This document shows, one piece after another, positions 1,291-56,359 of a stretch of DNA of 64,000 bases. This DNA comes from Ktedonobacterales bacterium (GTDB lineage Bacteria > Chloroflexota > Ktedonobacteria > Ktedonobacterales > JADMIN01): positions 44,518 through 108,517 of the forward strand of contig JAICVS010000001.1 in the NCBI GenBank assembly GCA_025935195.1, read 5' to 3'. The first letter of the stretch is position 1. Each line of letters starts with the position of its first letter. The notes under the pieces are model-generated. The model was not told the DNA's origin. It saw only the letters and a list, made by a program, of their open reading frames with translations, and ran no database searches. The position numbers and the translations under genes are program-made.

Positions 1291-1378
1291 CTGAGTTGTT
1301 GTCATTCTCGCGCTTGTCCTGACACCAGGATTACCCCCGGCATTCATGCCGGGGGGCCAGCGAATGACGACAACTCAG
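1291..1378 (+). repeat. Dispersed repeat family B, copy 1: 17-bp perfect inverted repeat enclosing a GC-rich tetraloop hairpin
   Basis: CTGAGTTGTTGTCATTC (1291-1307) pairs with GAATGACGACAACTCAG (1362-1378). The inner hairpin is CCCCGGCA-TTCA-TGCCGGGG. Related copies lie at 4731..4812 and 56243..56329 (reverse). Confidence 0.75.
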
Positions 1379-1420
1379 CCCAAAGGACCATCACACACGC
1401 TGAGGAACGCCGCCCGCTCC

Positions 1421-4462: not shown

Positions 4463-4657
4463 CTTGCCGCTTGTGCCGCCCACCGTGCCATCCGTTGCCA
4501 CTTCATTGCCGTTTCTTGCCGCTTTTGCCACCCATAATACGAAACGTCAAGTTCGTATGGGCCGCAAATCGGCTTGAATGCGGCATTCGAGAGGAGAACG
4601 CCCATGATACAAAATCAAAAAGCGGCAAAAACGGCAATGTTGACCATCCCACTCAAC
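4463..4657 (+). repeat. Repeat family C, copy 1: long-hairpin element with a phased TGCC array on its 5' side
   Basis: The left arm CATTGCCGTTTCTTGCCGCTTTT (from 4504) is complementary to the right arm AAAAGCGGCAAAAACGGCAATG, giving ~22 bp with one bulge. The conserved 3' tail is GTTGACCATCCCACTCAAC. Other copies lie at 26907..27085(-) and 47540..47739(+). Confidence 0.75.
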
Positions 4658-4730
4658 ATTGCCGCGCATGACGATCCCCGCCAAGGGCAACACTGCACCG
4701 GCGACCTGGGATCAGTCGCGCCGCTTTGCT

Positions 4731-4812
4731 CTGAGGTGTCGTCATTGACCAGATCGGCTCGTCACGGGATTACCCCCGGCATTCATGCCGGGAGGCCAAC
4801 GAACGACACCCA
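4731..4812 (+). repeat. Repeat family B, copy 2
   Basis: GGATTACCCCCGGCATTCATGCCGGGAGGCCAACGAACGAC is shared with copies 1 and 3. The flanking arms GAGGTGTCGTCATTG and CAACGAACGACACCC are imperfectly inverted. Confidence 0.7.
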
Positions 4813-4966
4813 TTCAACGCAAATCGGTATGATCCGGCTATGCCGCCCCCATGCGCCCGGCGTGACGGCCGGGCGGCGGCGCGCGGTACAATGCGAATGC
4901 GACAAGCCATCTCCGATCCGCCGCTCGCGCATCAGACAGGCAGCGCCGAGGAGGCACGATAGAGGC

Positions 4967-15635: not shown

Positions 15636-15675
15636 TTTCACCACAGAGGGCACAGAGGACACAGAGGACGGAGAG
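15636..15675 (+). repeat. Repeat family D (purine-rich CACAGAGGACACGGAGG type), copy 1
   Basis: TTTCACCACAGAGGGCACAGAGGACACAGAGGACGGAGAG. Related to 7 other intergenic copies in this window. Confidence 0.7.
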
Positions 15676-20090: not shown

Positions 20091-21041
20091 CTATGCCGTC
20101 GCGGGGCCAGCGGGCTGAGGCGAAGGTGCGGGCGTGGGTTCCGGAGCCGATTCGGTTGGTACAGGGGTAGGTGACGGGTTGGGAAGCGGTGTAGCCGTCG
20201 GCGCAGCGGTCGCCTGGGGTGTTGGTATCGGCTGCGGGGTAGGTTGAGGCGTCGGGACAGGGGTACGCGTCGGATCAGGGGGTGGAGTAGTTGTTGGCGC
20301 CGGGGTGGGTGAGGGTGCTGGGGTGGCCGTCGGCGCCGGGGTGGGTGAGGGTGCTGGAGTAGGCGACGGCGCGGGCGTCGGTGATGGCGCGGCCGTCGGA
20401 GCCGGGGTGGGCGATGGCGCGGGCGTCGGCGCCGGGGTGGATGTCGCGGTCGGAGCAGACGTGGGTGTCGCCACGGGCGTCGCGGTGGGTTGCGGGCGCG
20501 GTGTGCTGGTTGGCGTGGGCCTGGGCGTCACCGTCGGCTGGGGAGTATTCGTCGGACGCGGGCCCGCCTCGACGCCGGGGAAGTGCGTCAGCGACGAGCT
20601 GGAGAACGGCACCAGCCCACTCGTGAGCGCGCCCAGCACAGCGGCGGCGAGCAACACAACGGCGGCGATCGCGCCCGCGGCTGTGCTGAAGCGACGCTCG
20701 TGCGCGGCATCCACAAGCCGTTGCGCCCCGGAACGGCGCTCGCCGGGCCAGTCCGGCTGGGCGCTGGTAGGCCTTCCCACCAACCGCTCGCCAGGATGTC
20801 GCGCCTCGGGCAGCGATGGCAGCACAGGGTCGGGCGCGACATGTTCCGGCTGCGCGGGAGACCCCGGCCATGTCGGCTGATCTTGCCAGTCCGAACTCTC
20901 GTCCGGATACTCCGCCCAGTAGCGCGCGCCGGGCGGCAACGACGACGGCACAGTGCGGTCATCAGGCCACCACGACTGCCCCTGTTCCGATTCCGGCGCT
21001 TCACCTTCCGGCGCTTCACCTGGCTCCGGCCAGCGATCCAT
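20091..21041 (-). CDS. Hypothetical membrane-anchored protein with a long Pro/Thr/Ala-rich C-terminal region
   Basis: One TM segment (AIAAVVLLAAAVLGAL) followed by ~150 aa of TPxPTP-type low complexity. Confidence 0.5.
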   Translation of the reverse strand: MDRWPEPGEAPEGEAPESEQGQSWWPDDRTVPSSLPPGARYWAEYPDESSDWQDQPTWPGSPAQPEHVAPDPVLPSLPEARHPGERLVGRPTSAQPDWPGERRSGAQRLVDAAHERRFSTAAGAIAAVVLLAAAVLGALTSGLVPFSSSSLTHFPGVEAGPRPTNTPQPTVTPRPTPTSTPRPQPTATPVATPTSAPTATSTPAPTPAPSPTPAPTAAPSPTPAPSPTPAPSPTPAPTATPAPSPTPAPTTTPPPDPTRTPVPTPQPTPQPIPTPQATAAPTATPLPNPSPTPVPTESAPEPTPAPSPQPAGPATA

Positions 21042-21247
21042 CGCCTGCCCTCCATGTGTCCTTGGAACATCACAACGCTCTGCCGTAGCTCATTGCAGCA
21101 TGCGGGCCAACATCGCTGTCCCATGTTCTTCGCCAGCGCGTCTATACCTCGCTGGTGATCGGCTGACTGCTCGTGGCATGCCAATCCCGCTGATCGGGTG
21201 ATCGGGCATCTCGCTGGCAGGGAAGGCCCGCGTCCTTGCTCAAGTTC

Positions 21248-22660
21248 CTATGGTTCGTCCAGTGAATCGCCATCATCGGTGGGTGTCGGGGTGGGTGTCG
21301 GCAGGGGGGAAGCTGTGGGCTGATGGTCGGGTGTAGGGGTCGGCTCAGGCTGTGCGGTCGGCGTGGGCGCTGGCGCCGGGGTGGATGTCGGAGCGGGTGG
21401 GGCCGGCGTCGCGGTCGGCTGTGGACGCGGTGTTGCCGTTGGGATAGGCCGGGGCGTCGCGGTGGGGTGCGGTTTGGGCGTCGCGGTGGGGTGCGGTTTG
21501 GGCGTCGCGGTGGGGTGCGGTTTGGGCGTCGCGGTGGGGTGCGGTTTGGGCGTCGGCATTGGATTGGGCGGCATGGTTGTGGGTGACGGCCTGGGCTTCG
21601 GCGTCGCCGTTGGAGCGGGTCTGGGGGTAGCGGTCGGGATGGGCTTCGGCGTCACTATCGGCTGGGGGCGCGGGGTGGCCGTGGGCTGGGGATGAGGCCG
21701 GGGATCGGAGCGCGGGGTCGGGCGCGGAGCCGGTGGGTGATGAACGACGGGTCGCGGCGGAGGTGGGAGGACAACGGGCCGTGGGGTAGGAGTAGCCGCC
21801 GGTGTAGGCTGTGGCGTGGCCGTGGCCGCGATGGTAGGGCGCGGAGTGGCCGTCGCGGTGGGCAGCGTGCGTGAGGCAATGGTCGCGGTCGGTCGCGGCG
21901 CGGCCAGAAGCCCGTCGGCACCAGCCGCATCGGTTGGCGCGACACGGCCGACGAGCACGGCGCTGAGCGCGACGGCCAGCACCAGCAGCGACGCCATCGC
22001 CCGCGCATGAGGTGCCAGCCGGAAGTAAGCGGCGGCCGATCTCCCGCGCTGCCTGCCATGCCTCCGGTTCCGGCCAGAGATGATGGTGACGGAGGCATGG
22101 TAAATGGGCGCGAGTCCAGCCTGCGCAATACGGCGTGGCGCGGTGTTGGGTGAGCGGCGCACGAGCGTGACTGGTGCAGGTGGCGCGATGGATTGTAGTG
22201 GGTAGTGCGCGGCTGGCGCCGCGCGGCGGATGGAGCCAGCAGGGACAGGACGGCTGGCGGGAGCGAACGCGGCCAGGCGGCGTGACATGCTGGACGGCTT
22301 GCCTGGCGGTGAGGGCAGAGAGCGGACGATGGGCAGGTTGAGCAGGCGCGGCATAGCGGTGCGCCCCGCGCCGGGGATGACAGAGGCGGGAACTGGCACG
22401 GCGCCGAGCAGTGCGAGCACCGGGCCGGCCTCACTCCAGGTGACGGGGAAAGCCCGCAACGCCTCACCGTCGGTGGTGCGGATATAGAGGTCATGGCCGG
22501 TGGGAGTGCGGACACAGGCGGCGCCGGCGATGTGGGAGCGGGCCAGCGACCAATGCCGGGCGCGATATGGTCCGAACAGCGGGCTCAGGCTGACGCGGTC
22601 GGCGGTGATGTCGAGCCGGTCGAGTGTGCCGGCGATGCTGAGCTGCACAGGCATTGGCAT
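21248..22660 (-). CDS. Hypothetical protein: globular N-terminal domain, one TM segment, Pro/Thr-rich repetitive C-terminus
   Basis: The start is taken at MPMPVQLSIAG (GGGAGA upstream). The 707-aa track ORF extends upstream across the methyltransferase gene in another frame and is rejected. Confidence 0.5.
   Translation of the reverse strand: MPMPVQLSIAGTLDRLDITADRVSLSPLFGPYRARHWSLARSHIAGAACVRTPTGHDLYIRTTDGEALRAFPVTWSEAGPVLALLGAVPVPASVIPGAGRTAMPRLLNLPIVRSLPSPPGKPSSMSRRLAAFAPASRPVPAGSIRRAAPAAHYPLQSIAPPAPVTLVRRSPNTAPRRIAQAGLAPIYHASVTIISGRNRRHGRQRGRSAAAYFRLAPHARAMASLLVLAVALSAVLVGRVAPTDAAGADGLLAAPRPTATIASRTLPTATATPRPTIAATATPQPTPAATPTPRPVVLPPPPRPVVHHPPAPRPTPRSDPRPHPQPTATPRPQPIVTPKPIPTATPRPAPTATPKPRPSPTTMPPNPMPTPKPHPTATPKPHPTATPKPHPTATPKPHPTATPRPIPTATPRPQPTATPAPPAPTSTPAPAPTPTAQPEPTPTPDHQPTASPLPTPTPTPTDDGDSLDEP
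21453..21554. repeat. Tandem 24-bp repeat, about 4.2 units, inside the PT-rich CDS
   Basis: GGCGTCGCGGTGGGGTGCGGTTTG repeated head to tail. It encodes four (TPKPHPTA) units on the minus strand. Confidence 0.9.
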
Positions 22661-26736: not shown

Positions 26737-26838
26737 ACCACAGATGACACGGAGGTCGCGGAGGTCGCGGAGGTCGCGGAGGACGAGAACCAACACGGAG
26801 GAACGGAGGCGAGGGAGGTTCACGGAGGAGGGAGGATG
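26737..26838 (+). repeat. Repeat family D, copy 3 (long variant with an internal 10-mer GGAGGTCGCG x3)
   Basis: ACCACAGATGACACGGAGGTCGCGGAGGTCGCGGAGGTCGCGGAGGACGAGAACCAACACGGAGGAACGGAGG. The GACGAGAACCAACAC(G/A)GAGGAACGGAGG block is shared with copies 4 and 8. Confidence 0.7.
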
Positions 26839-26906
26839 GGGCCGTGGAGGACGCCGAAGGCATGGAGGATGAGAGCGGATGGTGGGGGAGGGACGCGGAG
26901 AGAAGT

Positions 26907-27085
26907 TGACTGGGATGGTCACCATTGCCGTTTTTGCCGCTTTTCAGATTTTTATACGGCGAGGATGCGCGTGAGGGCTGAATTGAAGCGGGTTTGCTGG
27001 GATCGGCAACGTGATATGTGGTGGTATAGGTGGCAAAAGCGGCAAGAAACGGCAACATCCCCTTGCCGTTTTTGCCTACTGGGAT
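26907..27085 (-). repeat. Repeat family C, copy 2 (reverse orientation)
   Basis: The reverse complement reads ...GTTGCCGTTTCTTGCCGCTTTTGCCACC...GAAAAGCGGCAAAAACGGCAATGGTGACCATCCCAGTCAAC. ACTGGGATGG occurs at both ends (26908-26917 and 27076-27085). Confidence 0.75.
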
Positions 27086-30271: not shown

Positions 30272-30375
30272 CCCCTTCTTCCTCTGCGAACCTCCGTTCC
30301 CTCCGTGTTCCTCCGTGTTGGTTCTCGTCCTCTCCTCCCTCTCTCCTCCGTGTTCCTCCGTGTCCTCTGTGGTAA
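30272..30375 (-). repeat. Repeat family D, copy 4 (long variant)
   Basis: The minus strand reads TTACCACAGAGGACACGGAGGAACACGGAGGAGAGAGGGAGGAGAGGACGAGAACCAACACGGAGGAACACGGAGGGAACGGAGG. Confidence 0.75.
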
Positions 30376-32587: not shown

Positions 32588-33049
32588 GCGTTGGCTGACC
32601 TCCGCTCGCGTGTGGGTGCCGCGCCACACCCTCAGCGAGTGTGGCACAGCTCCTTCAGGGGCGTAGACGGTCCCTTCCAGCACGCTCCCCACCACGCGCG
32701 ACGCACGCCCCGCTCCTGAAGTATTGTACTCGATTTCGATCCCAGATCAAGTTACGTTTGTCACAGCGTGGCTGCGCATTATGTCACAGCACACACCGCT
32801 AGCGCCGTCTCTCAGTGCATCCCCCACGACCGCTCACCTACCTTGAGCCAACCATCACGCCAGAGCCAGGGAAGGTGCCATCCTCTCTGAATGCCATCTC
32901 CATCTGTCGAGACTATCAATCTGCCACAAGATATACCACGTGGCGTATGGCCGCGTCACGGATGGCCGGGGGAGAGCCGCGCGAGAATCCGCGCAGGGTT
33001 TCGCGTGTTCTATGCAACAGGGGAGTGGAAGGGAGAACCGCGATGCACG

Positions 33050-33274
33050 ATGCGCATCCATCCACCGGCGTCGCGCCACCTGGCGGCGATGGCGGAGCCG
33101 GGAGCCACGGCTCCCTCACGCATGCCGATCTGGGCACCGCGGCGTCAGCTTCGGCCCGGTGGATGCGCTGTTCACCGCCGCCGCCTGCTCATCCTGCTCG
33201 CTGGCCTCTACGCCATGCGCAACCCGCGCGGCGTGCGCCTGCGCGATGCGGCGAAAGGGAAAGCGCCGCCGTGA
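33050..33274 (+). CDS. Possible small membrane protein (74 aa), weakly supported
   Basis: The frame has consistently G/C third positions, GGAAGGGAGA lies ~14 nt upstream, and there is one hydrophobic stretch, LLILLAGLYAM. No homology recognised. Confidence 0.25.
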   Translation: MRIHPPASRHLAAMAEPGATAPSRMPIWAPRRQLRPGGCAVHRRRLLILLAGLYAMRNPRGVRLRDAAKGKAPP

Positions 33275-33480
33275 ACCGCCGGCGAACGCGGCGAGGGGCA
33301 TGAATGCCCGCACGGTACGGCGCATGTGTTCAACCGTGACAACTCCCCACGGCTAAAGCCGGGGCTTCTAGGCCGAAGCCAGAGACTGTTGCCCCAGTCT
33401 CAAAATATTCAGGCTCGCGTTGAAATCGCGGTCCAGCACCACGCCACAACAGGGGCAGGTATAGGTCCGGTCGGAAAGGG
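33270..33480 (-). ncRNA. Predicted TnpB omega-RNA (reRNA) scaffold region; boundaries approximate
   Basis: Placed by analogy: in IS200/IS605 elements the guide RNA overlaps the tnpB 3' end and the right end. Local hairpins are GGCTTCGGCC, CCCCGGCTTTAGCCGTGGGG and GGGCATTCATGCCC (minus-strand sense). Confidence 0.35.
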
Positions 33481-34483
33481 AGAGCGTTTGCCGATGGCCA
33501 CACTGCGAGCAATCCTGCGACGTGTAGGCAGGGTTCACGGCGACATAGCTCCGACCGGCCCATGCTGCCTTGTACGAGAGAAGATCCGCGAACTGGCTCC
33601 ACGCCGCGTCATGGATGCTCTTGGCGAGGCAATGGTTATGCACCATCCGATTGACCGCGAGGTCTTCAACGGCGATCAGGTCAAAGCTGTTGACGATGCG
33701 CCGGCTATGCTGGTGCACAAAGTCACCGCGCCGCCAGCGCGTCCGCTCGTAGACACGCGCGACCACGTGACGGCGCTTGGCGCGTTCGGGCGTACCCTTC
33801 TCTGCTTTAGAGAGGCGGCGCTGTGCCTTGGCAAGCGCCTTCTCCTCCTGGCGGAAGAAGCGCGGGTTCGCCACCTCATCGCCAGTCGAGAGCGTGGCGA
33901 ACGTCGTCAAACCGACGTCAATGCCTACCTGCCGCCCGGTCTCCGGCAGCGGGAATGGCTCAGCGCACTCGCACGAAAACGAGACAGACCACTTGCCCGT
34001 GCTGCCGCGGCGGATGGTGGCGGTCTTGGGTGTGCCTTCCAGCGGGCGATGCACGATGATCTTGACCAGCCCGACGTTCATGATGCGCAGGCGCCTGGCC
34101 TCAGCGTCCAGATGGCAACCCACCGGCACCTGTGGGAAGGTGAAGCTGTCGTAGCGCCCCTCACCCCGGAAGCGTGGATAGCCCGGTTCCTTCTCCCCCG
34201 CCTTCACTCGCCGGAAGAATGCCTGGAAGGCCAGGTCAATGCGGACCGCGACATTCTGCAACACCTGCGACTGCACCCCTGCCAGCGAGGGCCGCTCCGC
34301 TTTGAGGGCGGGCAGCGTCGCGTGCTGGTCATAGAGCCGCACCGACTCGCCCCGCTGCTCCCAGGCATCGCGGCGCTCGGCCAGCAGGTGATTGTACAGC
34401 CAGCGGCACTCCTCCAACTGCCGCTCCAGGAGGCGCTGCTGCTGCTTGTTCGGGTACAGGCGGTACGTGAATGTCTTACACAT
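33368..34483 (-). CDS. tnpB: TnpB (IS200/IS605 OrfB) RNA-guided endonuclease
   Basis: N-terminus MCKTFTYRLYPNKQQ. RuvC-I VGIDVGL, RuvC-II IAVEDL, zinc finger CSQCGH...CPCCG, RuvC-III DRDFNASLNIL. The 433-aa track ORF extends upstream through repeat D5, so the start is taken at 34483. Confidence 0.9.
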   Translation of the reverse strand: MCKTFTYRLYPNKQQQRLLERQLEECRWLYNHLLAERRDAWEQRGESVRLYDQHATLPALKAERPSLAGVQSQVLQNVAVRIDLAFQAFFRRVKAGEKEPGYPRFRGEGRYDSFTFPQVPVGCHLDAEARRLRIMNVGLVKIIVHRPLEGTPKTATIRRGSTGKWSVSFSCECAEPFPLPETGRQVGIDVGLTTFATLSTGDEVANPRFFRQEEKALAKAQRRLSKAEKGTPERAKRRHVVARVYERTRWRRGDFVHQHSRRIVNSFDLIAVEDLAVNRMVHNHCLAKSIHDAAWSQFADLLSYKAAWAGRSYVAVNPAYTSQDCSQCGHRQTLSLSDRTYTCPCCGVVLDRDFNASLNILRLGQQSLASA

Positions 34484-34489
34484 GTGTAC

Positions 34490-34518
34490 AGTAGAGCACA
34501 AAGCATACGTGTTCGCAA
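34490..34518 (-). promoter_or_regulatory. Sigma70-like promoter candidate in the tnpB left end
   Basis: The minus strand reads TTGCGA, a 17-nt spacer, then TCTACT, ending 6 nt before the tnpB ATG with no SD in between. This would imply a leaderless or near-leaderless mRNA. Confidence 0.3.
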
Positions 34519-34580
34519 GGCCAGAGGGCCATTCATCCCCAGCCCTAAAGGGCGGGGCCTTCTGGCCCCGTGCGGTAAAT

Positions 34581-34668
34581 GCTATTGTTTCCGTTCTCCC
34601 TCTCTCTCCTCCCTCTCCTCCCTCTCCTCCCTCTCTCCTCCGTGTTCCTCCGTGTCCTCTGTGGCTCA
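34581..34668 (-). repeat. Repeat family D, copy 5
   Basis: The minus strand reads TTGAGCCACAGAGGACACGGAGGAACACGGAGGAGAGAGGGAGGAGAGGGAGGAGAGGGAGG... It abuts the MBL gene stop codon and the tnpB left end. Confidence 0.75.
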
Positions 34669-35439
34669 AGTCTCGTCTGCCCGTAGCAGGATGCTGAATT
34701 CGCCGAACAGGTGCTTGCGCGTGCCGGGGTCCGCCGGGAACTCCACCCAGCGCGAGCGGCCCGCCAGCGCCTCATCCAGCGCCGCCAGCACCCGCCGCGC
34801 CAGCGCCGGCTCGTGCTCCGGCTGCTCGTGGCCGCCGTAGAGCGTGCGCACGCGCGCGTCCGCCGCGATCCGCTCCAGCGAGCGCCGCCATTGATCCAGG
34901 TCCGCATCCGACGTCTGGAACCAGAGCGTGCCCGCGTAGCAGGTGTCCGCGCAGAAGAGCGATTCCGTGGCCGCGTCGAGCAGGCTCACGTGCCCCGGCG
35001 AATGCCCCGGCGTGTGCCAGACGGCCAGCGACCGCCCGCCCAGATCGATCACATCGCCTTCGGCCAGCAACCCCGTCGCTGGCGCCGCGCGGATCGGCCC
35101 CACCTGCTCCACATCGTACGTCTCGCGCAGTCGCTCCGCCTCCGCCGCATGGATGCGCCGATCCGCGAACTGATACGTGCCGCCGACGTGATCCCAATGG
35201 CTGTGCGTGCAGAGGTTGATCAGCGGCTTGTCGGTGAGCCGGCGGCACGCCGCCGCCACATCGCCGATGCCCATCCCCGAATCGATCAGCGCCGCGCGCT
35301 CCGTCCCTTCCACCAGATACAGGTTCACCACCGCTACGTCGTACTCCGGCGCGACGCGCCCAATGGGATCGCGCAGCACCCACACCCCCGGCGCGATTGC
35401 CCGCGTCTCGAACCATTCGTCCGCCATGTCATGCCCCAT
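34666..35439 (-). CDS. MBL-fold metallo-hydrolase
   Basis: HxHxDH motif in LCTHSHWDHVGG, and later HTPGHSPGH. The start MGHDMADEW has GAGGAG 8 nt upstream. Confidence 0.85.
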   Translation of the reverse strand: MGHDMADEWFETRAIAPGVWVLRDPIGRVAPEYDVAVVNLYLVEGTERAALIDSGMGIGDVAAACRRLTDKPLINLCTHSHWDHVGGTYQFADRRIHAAEAERLRETYDVEQVGPIRAAPATGLLAEGDVIDLGGRSLAVWHTPGHSPGHVSLLDAATESLFCADTCYAGTLWFQTSDADLDQWRRSLERIAADARVRTLYGGHEQPEHEPALARRVLAALDEALAGRSRWVEFPADPGTRKHLFGEFSILLRADET

Positions 35440-44867: not shown

Positions 44868-44927
44868 GACATCCTATAGACACCAGAGCATGCTGAGGAC
44901 TGTGCGAGAGAGGGACGTATTGCCGAC

Positions 44928-44972
44928 CTTCCCTCACTCCTCTGTGAACCTCCCTGTCCTCTGTGGTGAATC
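44928..44972 (-). repeat. Repeat family D, copy 6 (short)
   Basis: The minus strand reads GATTCACCACAGAGGACAGGGAGGTTCACAGAGGAGTGAGGGAAGG. Confidence 0.65.
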
Positions 44973-45941: not shown

Positions 45942-46010
45942 TCTCTCCGTCTCTCCTCCGTCTCTCCTCCGTCTCTCCTCTGTGTCCACTGTGTCCTCTG
46001 TGGTGAATTC
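45941..46010 (-). repeat. Repeat family D, copy 7
   Basis: The minus strand reads GAATTCACCACAGAGGACACAGTGGACACAGAGGAGAGACGGAGGAGAGACGGAGGAGAGACGGAGAGAT, with an internal 11-mer x3. Confidence 0.7.
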
Positions 46011-47539: not shown

Positions 47540-47739
47540 GTGGCAACGCGAGATCGCCACATATTGCCACTCAGGTTGCCGCCGACCTTGCCACTTCTTG
47601 CCGTTTTTGCCGCCCATAACACGAAATGTCACGTGGCCGCGCGCCACAAAGTCCCTTGAATTCGGCATTCGAGCCGAAGCCGCCTCCGATACATCATCAA
47701 AAAGCGGCAAAAACGGCAATGGTGACCATCCCAGTCAAC
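47540..47739 (+). repeat. Repeat family C, copy 3
   Basis: ...CTTGCCGTTTTTGCCGCCCATAAC...TTGAATTCGGCATTCGAG...TCAAAAAGCGGCAAAAACGGCAATGGTGACCATCCCAGTCAAC, preceded by a phased TGCC array from ~47554. Confidence 0.75.
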
Positions 47740-47794
47740 ATCATCCGCTGACAAACAGTCATCCGGCCGCGCCAGGGACTGGAAGGAGGCTCGT

Positions 47795-56242: not shown

Positions 56243-56329
56243 GAGGTGGTTCGTTCGTTGGCCTCCCAGCATGAATGCCGGGGGTAATCCTGGTCTCATA
56301 GCGGTCACGGTAATGACAACAACCAGAGC
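56243..56329 (-). repeat. Repeat family B, copy 3 (reverse)
   Basis: The reverse complement reads GCTCTGGTTGTTGTCATTACCGTGACCGCTATGAGACCAGGATTACCCCCGGCATTCATGCTGGGAGGCCAACGAACGAACC. Confidence 0.7.
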
Positions 56330-56359
56330 AAATCCGCGTGAAACCTCGCCTGGGAGCGA

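Follow-up and report, generated by a model that had tools for sequence, protein, structure and literature searches.

Results

The sequence considered here, called the window below, is a stretch of 64,000 nt from a Ktedonobacterales-like Chloroflexota genome (contig JAICVS010000001.1). The subject of this report is a tnpB gene in this window together with the transposon ends on either side of it. The tnpB open reading frame (ORF) was found where the first-pass annotation, made by eye from the same sequence, had placed it (34483..33368 on the minus strand). It takes up 1,116 bp of a 1,239-bp element, which sits in an 839-bp spacer between the genes of a metallo-beta-lactamase (MBL)-fold hydrolase and a response regulator. 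As tnpB is the sole gene and the element carries no tnpA, its earlier description as IS1341-like and non-autonomous stands. The features are listed in Table 1.

Table 1. Features of the tnpB element and its immediate flanks (positions count from the first letter of the window; negative values are relative to the right end)
Feature	Position	Strand	Remarks
Whole element (left end, tnpB, right end)	33336..34574	-	1,239 bp; IS200/IS605 family, IS1341-type, no tnpA
TTAC, target site and predicted transposon-associated motif (TAM)	34575..34578	-	host sequence directly 5' of the left end
Left end	34484..34574	-	91 nt; conserved across family copies
Promoter-like TTGCGA (34518-34513), N17, TCTACT (34495-34490)	34490..34518	-	ends 6 nt before the ATG; no Shine-Dalgarno motif
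tnpB coding sequence	33368..34483	-	371 aa; RuvC D189/E273/D353; zinc finger C325/C328/C343/C346
5' stem-loop of the predicted omega-RNA	33528..33604	-	-269..-193 relative to the end of the right end; inside the tnpB coding sequence
3' omega-RNA module (predicted) / right end	33345..33401	-	covariation; covariance model match
Right-end terminus GUCAC	33336..33340	-	TCAC invariant
Predicted guide source, host flank	33316..33335	-	GGTTGAACACATGCGCCGTA; with TTAC, the predicted TnpB target, which is the empty-site allele

The protein and its classification

Three Pfam domains were found in TnpB, each above its cutoff: HTH_OrfB_IS605 (PF12323, residues 1-45), the RuvC domain OrfB_IS605 (PF01385, residues 169-282) and the zinc ribbon Cas12f1-like_TNB (PF07282, residues 295-360). 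Their order, an N-terminal helix-turn-helix and WED-REC part followed by RuvC and the zinc-ribbon TNB, is the architecture of a TnpB. The NCBIfam model guided_TnpB gives 328.7 bits against a cutoff of 100, and IS200_TnpB gives 323.7 bits. In a phmmer comparison with the sequences of the PDB, residues 3-362 align with ISDra2 TnpB (8BF8/8EXA/8H1J; E=4e-62). In this alignment D189 (GIDVG), E273 (AVEDL) and D353 (DRDFN) fall on D191, E278 and D361 of ISDra2, named as the catalytic centre in the cryo-electron microscopy paper (PMC10097598). The zinc finger, CSQC at residue 325 and CPCC at residue 343, is likewise aligned to the cysteines of ISDra2. The motifs that the first-pass annotation had read by eye, and the D-E-D register it had proposed to check, are thus recovered by the domain search and by the alignment.

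Compared with 70 proteins of the family, the TnpB of the window matches the consensus at 118 of the 118 columns that are at least 95 % conserved, and both CxxC pairs are present. Because the D-E-D residues coincide with those of ISDra2 and all these positions are kept, the sequence indicates an intact 371-aa TnpB with the RuvC triad in register. By analogy, we would expect RNA-guided, TAM-dependent cleavage of double-stranded DNA, the substrate being TTAC followed by GGTTGAACACATGCGC.

Every feature looked for as a mark of a TnpB and of an IS200/IS605 element of the IS1341 type was present; the marks of IS607-type elements and of Cas12f were absent. The protein does match C2c8 and Cas12f2 models and Cas12f structures weakly and below threshold, as might a miniature type V CRISPR effector (Cas12f or V-U-like) that is not a transposon nuclease. 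We consider the probability of such an effector negligible: Cas12f2 reaches 67 bits against a cutoff of 450 and C2c8 124 against 350, the repeats of the window include no CRISPR-like array, and the gene lies between transposon ends and is missing, with precise borders, from the empty-site allele described below.

Ends of the element and its empty sites

A scan of one genome per species yielded 80 related loci, often several per genome. The first-pass annotation gave neither the ends nor the TAM and proposed an alignment of copies; these loci supply 34574, 33336 and TTAC. On the right side, an alignment of the 3' parts of 33 close copies shows a sudden end of similarity after ...GGGGAGTTGTCAC. 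The terminal TCAC is kept in 75-76 of 76 copies, while from +1 onward the base composition is random and the flanks of the family are unrelated. The right end in the window is therefore 33336 (...GTCAC), with host flank from 33335 downward. On the left side, family similarity starts directly after TTAC, and the 5' flanks diverge just upstream of it. Of the 56 copies that could be anchored, 37 have TTAC where the position of the left-end hairpin predicts it, compared with 0-1 of 56 for each of three control windows; a minority of copies have TTAT there.

The left-end subterminal hairpin (34558-34537, GCCCCGCCCUUUAGGGCUGGGG) is nested in an outer GGCC...GGCC stem. It is also the only other notable match in the window of the covariance model built for the right end (14.6 bits, E=0.15, same strand). 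The two hairpins are alike and both have an extra unpaired T/U; there are no terminal inverted repeats.

The ends could be compared with contigs of closely related genomes, obtained by exact-sequence look-up of the neighbouring MoaE protein (the same look-up for TnpB and for the MBL-fold neighbour gave no match). Over 16.4 kb one of these contigs (L081, GCA_025928755.1) agrees with the window at 99.8-99.95 % identity, yet its MBL-fold and response-regulator genes have no tnpB between them. When 34574..33336 is removed from the window, the remainder equals this contig with 0 mismatches over 1,062 nt. A second contig (L082, GCA_025936375.1) covers 874 nt of the reconstructed empty site and is likewise identical to it. 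The sequence of the empty-site allele is ...GCATTTAC/GGTTGAACACATGCGCC..., and both contigs carry TTAC/GGTTGAAC, the slash marking the junction. The ends deduced from the related copies are thereby confirmed, save for 2 nt (AC) at the junction whose assignment is ambiguous. The insertion lies 3' of TTAC and has made no target-site duplication.

The element is a within-species presence/absence polymorphism. Since near-identical genomes differ by its exact presence or absence, it has moved recently and is not a relic. The alternative to be weighed here is a fixed, decaying or domesticated tnpB that neither moves nor cuts, for example a regulator-like derivative. It would agree with the single copy in the window, with the want of a copy at least 90 % identical elsewhere, with a promoter below the family consensus and with no tnpA nearby. 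It does not agree with the 118 intact positions, the D-E-D triad and four cysteines among them, with the completeness of both ends, or with a precise empty site in genomes 99.8-99.95 % identical, which implies movement on the timescale of strain divergence. We find this alternative very unlikely. The first-pass annotation had itself allowed that comparison could reveal such a relic, with no conserved segment at the 3' side; the empty-site alleles and the sharp conservation boundary at the right end contradict it.

The serine-recombinase-mobilised IS607 type, in place of the Y1-type IS200/IS605, could be argued from a partial match to NCBIfam IS607_TnpB. This match, 127.6 bits, is far under its cutoff of 350 and compares with the scores given above for IS200_TnpB and guided_TnpB. 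Insertion 3' of TTAC without duplication, subterminal hairpins and the TCAC terminus are Y1 hallmarks, and IS608 uses the same TTAC (PMC8612924). Only Y1 HUH transposases were seen near family members, and the neighbourhood of the window element contains no serine recombinase. An IS607-type element is, in our view, extremely unlikely.

The family of related copies

TnpB homologues at 80-90 % identity number in the thousands; the named ones come mostly from metagenome-assembled genomes (MAGs) of Ktedonobacterales and are annotated as "RNA-guided endonuclease TnpB family protein". In these MAGs the lineage is multi-copy, with another flank at every copy. According to the analysis of repeats, the element is single-copy in the 64-kb window.

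At 78 of the 80 related loci no ORF with the Y1 signature occurs within 3 kb. At the one of the two exceptions that was checked (L013), the tnpA is part of a neighbouring tnpA-tnpB' element in the opposite orientation. As only two loci have such an ORF nearby, and that of L013 is another element's, the lineage is overwhelmingly stand-alone (IS1341-type); Y1 transposases do occur in the genomes of family members. At positions 2440-2900 of L013 the family copy abuts the autonomous tnpA-tnpB' element head to head, and the left-end hairpin of the latter differs. In another locus (L017, 1198-1330) a second tnpB begins about 25 nt downstream of the right end of the family copy, so that the elements stand in tandem.

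The closest database relative of the TnpB is P0002 (90 % protein identity, contig L085). Its gene has no recognisable family left end or promoter in positions 1-95 of the contig, which is uninformative as regards the donor copy. The sequence upstream of its ATG ends in ...AATAGTCAC and resembles the right-end terminus of another element. This copy is probably truncated or over-inserted.

The predicted omega-RNA and its guide

The first-pass annotation expected a guide RNA from the 3' end of tnpB together with the right end. A conserved, covarying RNA structure does lie there; its expression is a prediction. RNAalifold applied to 76 copies gave three hairpins just upstream of the right-end terminus. 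Stem 1 (33401-33382) and stem 2 (33380-33371, GGC-UUCG-GCC) are followed by the right-end subterminal hairpin (33364-33345) with a UUUA loop at 33357-33354 and a bulged U33349. The tnpB stop codon TAG (33370-33368) falls between stem 2 and this hairpin. For the 18 pairs of this 3' module, 95.8 % of the cells are paired, compared with 43-49 % when the partners are slid; compensatory changes occur in 17 of the 18 pairs, and the covariation score is 0.617 against about 0.07, with none of 500 shuffles reaching the observed values. G-U wobble pairs are tolerated on the minus strand. The covariance model built from the module gives 104 bits on the window at 33336-33433.

Distant relatives (57-69 % protein identity, several phyla) keep the motif, with the stop codon at varying places inside it; the constraint is therefore on the nucleic acid and not on the protein. 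The GC-rich hairpins that had been noticed at about 33270-33480 are thus backed by covariation, whereas the single-sequence fold lends them nothing: that of 33545-33316 is not better than its shuffles (z=-0.33), a measure that is uninformative in a GC-rich background.

A second covarying structure, the 5' stem-loop, has 19 pairs. Of its cells 85.9 % are paired, against 30-53 % with slid partners; 153 cells show double changes against 23-65, none of 300 shuffles reaches the observed values, and covariation is seen in 10 of the 19 pairs. Synonymous-site entropy along tnpB, calculated from 30 close copies, has a baseline of about 0.65 and a minimum of 0.23-0.25 at codons 291-315, which coincides with this stem-loop (33604-33528). 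After codon 315 it is mostly 0.39-0.52 to the end of tnpB, except for 0.71 at codons 341-355. Helices at 33526-33499 and 33496-33450 and an outer closing helix were also predicted and were dropped, being unsupported by covariation.

A pairing is predicted between the GUC of the terminus (33340-33338, -5..-3) and a GAC further upstream (33433-33431, -98..-96). The counts for the three pairs are GC 73, AU 75, and CG 39/UG 21/UA 8, for which covariation support is weak. Taken together, the comparison predicts an omega-RNA scaffold of about 270-290 nt, from roughly 33604-33620 to 33336. The folding that the annotation had proposed thus gave an omega-RNA fold of about 270 nt by the comparative route; the covariance-model scan with Rfam was without a match. 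As judged from sequence conservation, the structure overlaps the 3' end of tnpB and the right end and ends at the transposon boundary, as expected for an omega-RNA.

One could suppose that the conserved 3' hairpins act only as DNA, recognised by TnpA at the right end, or as a terminator, and that there is no functional guide RNA. The likeness of the right-end hairpin to the left-end one would be expected of TnpA binding sites, and the unremarkable single-sequence fold energy and the empty Rfam result point the same way. Covariation, however, goes well beyond the subterminal hairpin: it is seen in stem 1, in stem 2 and in the stem-loop within the coding region (190-270 nt in), where no TnpA site is known; synonymous sites are constrained at this stem-loop, the arrangement follows that of the ISDra2 omega-RNA, whose structure was determined together with its protein, and the tolerated wobble pairs are those of the minus strand. 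We therefore hold a purely DNA-level role to be highly improbable.

If the structure is an omega-RNA, its guide would come from the host flank directly beyond the right end. By the example of ISDra2, it would be about 16 nt long (PMC8612924). No second close match to the guide flank sequence was found in the window. The first-pass annotation had the guide read from about 33320. With the right end at 33336 the guide would start at 33335, and 33270-33335 is host flank, so the earlier positions were about 15-65 nt off. Neither is the flank beside the right end low in GC, as had been stated: GC is 0.69-0.74 at 33100-33399, and the drop to 0.57-0.61 comes only at 32700-32999.

At 33296-33309, 27 nt past the right end, the host flank holds a hairpin, GGGCATTCATGCCC, which is also present in the empty-site allele. 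It has a GGCATTCATGCC core in common with a three-copy repeat found elsewhere in the window (1295-1384, 4720-4823 and 56251-56340). This hairpin could influence the end of the omega-RNA transcript.

Expression signals in the left end

In the family, the promoter matches the -35/-10 consensus at 9 or more of 12 positions in 59 of 76 copies. In 55 of 76, exactly 6 nt separate the -10 box from the start codon, and a Shine-Dalgarno-like motif is found in 3 of 76. This pattern supports a leaderless tnpB mRNA as a property of the family, and in the window tnpB is probably transcribed in this way from the left-end promoter. The TTGCGA-N17-TCTACT motif had been proposed in the first-pass annotation; its position and its fit to the family pattern hold, while its strength does not, as it scores 8 of 12 and fails the sigma-70 scan. 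That consensus scan found no site in the element; the support for the proposed promoter comes from its position and from family conservation.

An inverted repeat of the left end (34510-34503 / 34485-34478; family consensus ACGCATGC...GCATGCGT) has the -10 box between its arms and takes in the start codon. We tried it as a conserved RNA structure and retain it as no more than a lead: it is 82 % paired in the close clade, but with 0 compensatory changes, and RNAalifold gives nothing across the wider family. The palindrome could hide the AUG in read-through transcripts.

Discussion

We believe that the locus is a complete, non-autonomous insertion sequence of the IS200/IS605 family, IS1341 type, that carries an intact TnpB and the scaffold of its omega-RNA; we put the probability of this at roughly 85 %. 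The interpretation of the first-pass annotation is supported in its essentials, with corrections to the position of the right end, the strength of the promoter and the composition of the flank.

Several points weigh against this reading. No cognate TnpA was found in the 64-kb window. The protein collection has no second copy at least 90 % identical (the cluster is of one), and there is no sign of a recent burst. The promoter of the window copy is among the family's weakest and is without the conserved A at position 2 of the -10 box. Rfam, searched with the whole window at the gathering threshold and with 32700-34800 at E up to 10, returned no meaningful family. The omega-RNA with its ends and the leaderless start are predicted features, and selection may keep the right-end hairpin as single-stranded DNA to which TnpA binds, instead of, or besides, as RNA. 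Finally, the polarity of the polymorphism may be either way, as a gain in the lineage of the window and a precise excision elsewhere are both compatible with it.

The mechanism we presume for this insertion sequence is as follows. The RNA of the last ~270 nt of the element would fold with two stems between a 5' stem-loop and the right-end hairpin, the latter with its UUUA loop, and with a pseudoknot-like GAC/GUC pairing. If transcription ran on for about 16-20 nt beyond the right end, it would append the guide GGUUGAACACAUGCGC... TnpB would bind this omega-RNA, and, by analogy with ISDra2 and related TnpBs, the ~16-nt flank-derived 3' segment would direct cleavage of matching double-stranded DNA adjacent to TTAC. 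A Y1 HUH TnpA supplied in trans would use the similar imperfect hairpins near both ends and the TTAC/TCAC cleavage sites for "peel-and-paste" transposition. The target cleaved by TnpB would be the donor joint that excision of the element by this TnpA leaves behind, and repair from a sister copy would reinstate the element, so that it is retained by homing. The right-end RNA (reRNA) of ISDra2 and the model of TAM and donor joint have been described (PMC8612924), as has the architecture of the ISDra2 omega-RNA (PMC10097598).

ISDra2 of Deinococcus radiodurans, with its TnpB-omega-RNA (reRNA) complex, is one of the closest systems for comparison: the proteins are homologous over their full length, with D-E-D and the CCCC zinc finger in register, and in both the guide-RNA scaffold, a predicted one here, overlaps the 3' end of tnpB and the right end, with the guide taken from the flank. 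The UUUA loop of the terminal hairpin lies at -22..-19 here and at -20..-17 in ISDra2; positions -5..-3 are predicted to pair with -98..-96 here and pair with -103..-105 in the ISDra2 pseudoknot (PMC10097598). ISDra2 differs in having its own tnpA and the TAM TTGAT, whereas the window element has no tnpA and TTAC. The TnpB considered here is also shorter at the C-terminus (371 against 408 aa). The covarying 5' stem-loop lies at -269..-193, and the 5' region of the ISDra2 omega-RNA (-231..-117) is dispensable for cleavage.

IS608 of Helicobacter pylori, like the window element, targets TTAC, inserts on its 3' side with no duplication and has imperfect subterminal hairpins at its two ends (PMC8612924). 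It is autonomous (tnpA and tnpB), whereas the element of the window has tnpB alone and the right-end terminus TCAC. IS1341-type elements have the same architecture, one tnpB between IS200/IS605-like ends and no transposase (PMC10691335), and there is no difference in kind from them; the present element belongs to a separate lineage, abundant in Ktedonobacterales MAGs. [quoted passage not shown] The TnpBs of that system, of the "typical TnpB" clade, come from the same bacterial group and the same clade of small (300-450 aa) TnpBs, and are infrequently associated with a transposase, as here (PMC10691335); the likeness drawn here is one of taxonomy, size and gene context.

A more specific scenario can be put forward, which on its circumstantial grounds we regard as unlikely in this form. 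The element would be single-copy and without a cognate TnpA; its polymorphism would be driven mainly by homing of TnpB on the empty allele TTAC-GGTTGAAC, and it would spread by recombination between strains and not by transposition. The left-end palindrome, spanning the -10 box and the AUG, might shield tnpB from host read-through, leaving the leaderless transcript as the only one translated.

Nothing in the element is categorically new. Its practical value is that of a well-defined specimen: the nuclease is compact (371 aa), the TAM, TTAC, is short, the ends are mapped exactly, and the comparison of copies has resolved a model of the omega-RNA. Unusually, its natural target, the empty-site allele, is on record in genomes almost identical to this one. 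As both the occupied and the empty native alleles are known, the model of homing and retention by TnpB is testable on native sequences.

Surroundings of the element

The genes within 5 kb encode the MBL-fold hydrolase, an HD-domain protein, the response regulator, an M17 aminopeptidase, a DUF7387 protein, MoaD/MoaE, a flavin-dependent halogenase-like enzyme and an FRG-domain protein. Neither a TnpA nor a serine recombinase is among them, in agreement with the first-pass annotation. Scans of the 64-kb window for HUH-Y and serine-recombinase motifs, weak tests as they use regular expressions, were negative. The GC content of the element is 0.59-0.68, compared with 0.69-0.78 in its neighbours.

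The window contains several families of repeats. The three-copy repeat mentioned above is structured and about 100 nt long, its copy at 56251-56340 being in reverse complement. An outer inverted repeat GAGTTGTTGTCATT...AATGACGACAACTC encloses the hairpin CCCCCGGCATTCATGCCGGGGGG, with GGATTAC before the hairpin, and the right-end covariance model matches the repeat weakly (10.6 bits). It may be a small RNA or an element resembling miniature inverted-repeat or palindrome-associated transposable elements (MITE/PATE).

Pyrimidine-rich, strand-asymmetric repeats (CCTCTCCTCC...GTGTTCCTCCGTGTCCTCTGTGG) occur at six or more intergenic sites (15637-15668, 26770-26835, 30323-30372, 34595-34664, 44923-44966 and 45944-46007). 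The TTAC target of the tnpB element is 17 nt from one of them. When read through, they give spurious "HRGHGGTRRREGGE" extensions of ORFs. A further repeat of about 150 nt, with TTGCCGTTTTTGCCGCTTTT, is present in three copies of 79-98 % identity (4506-4659, 47588-47741 and, inverted, 26902-27055). Finally, 20188-21720 is a long tract of tandem repeats, G-rich and degenerate, whose periods are 18 and 24 nt (GGCGTCGCGGTGGGGTGCGGTTTG...); the opposite strand probably encodes a repetitive protein here.

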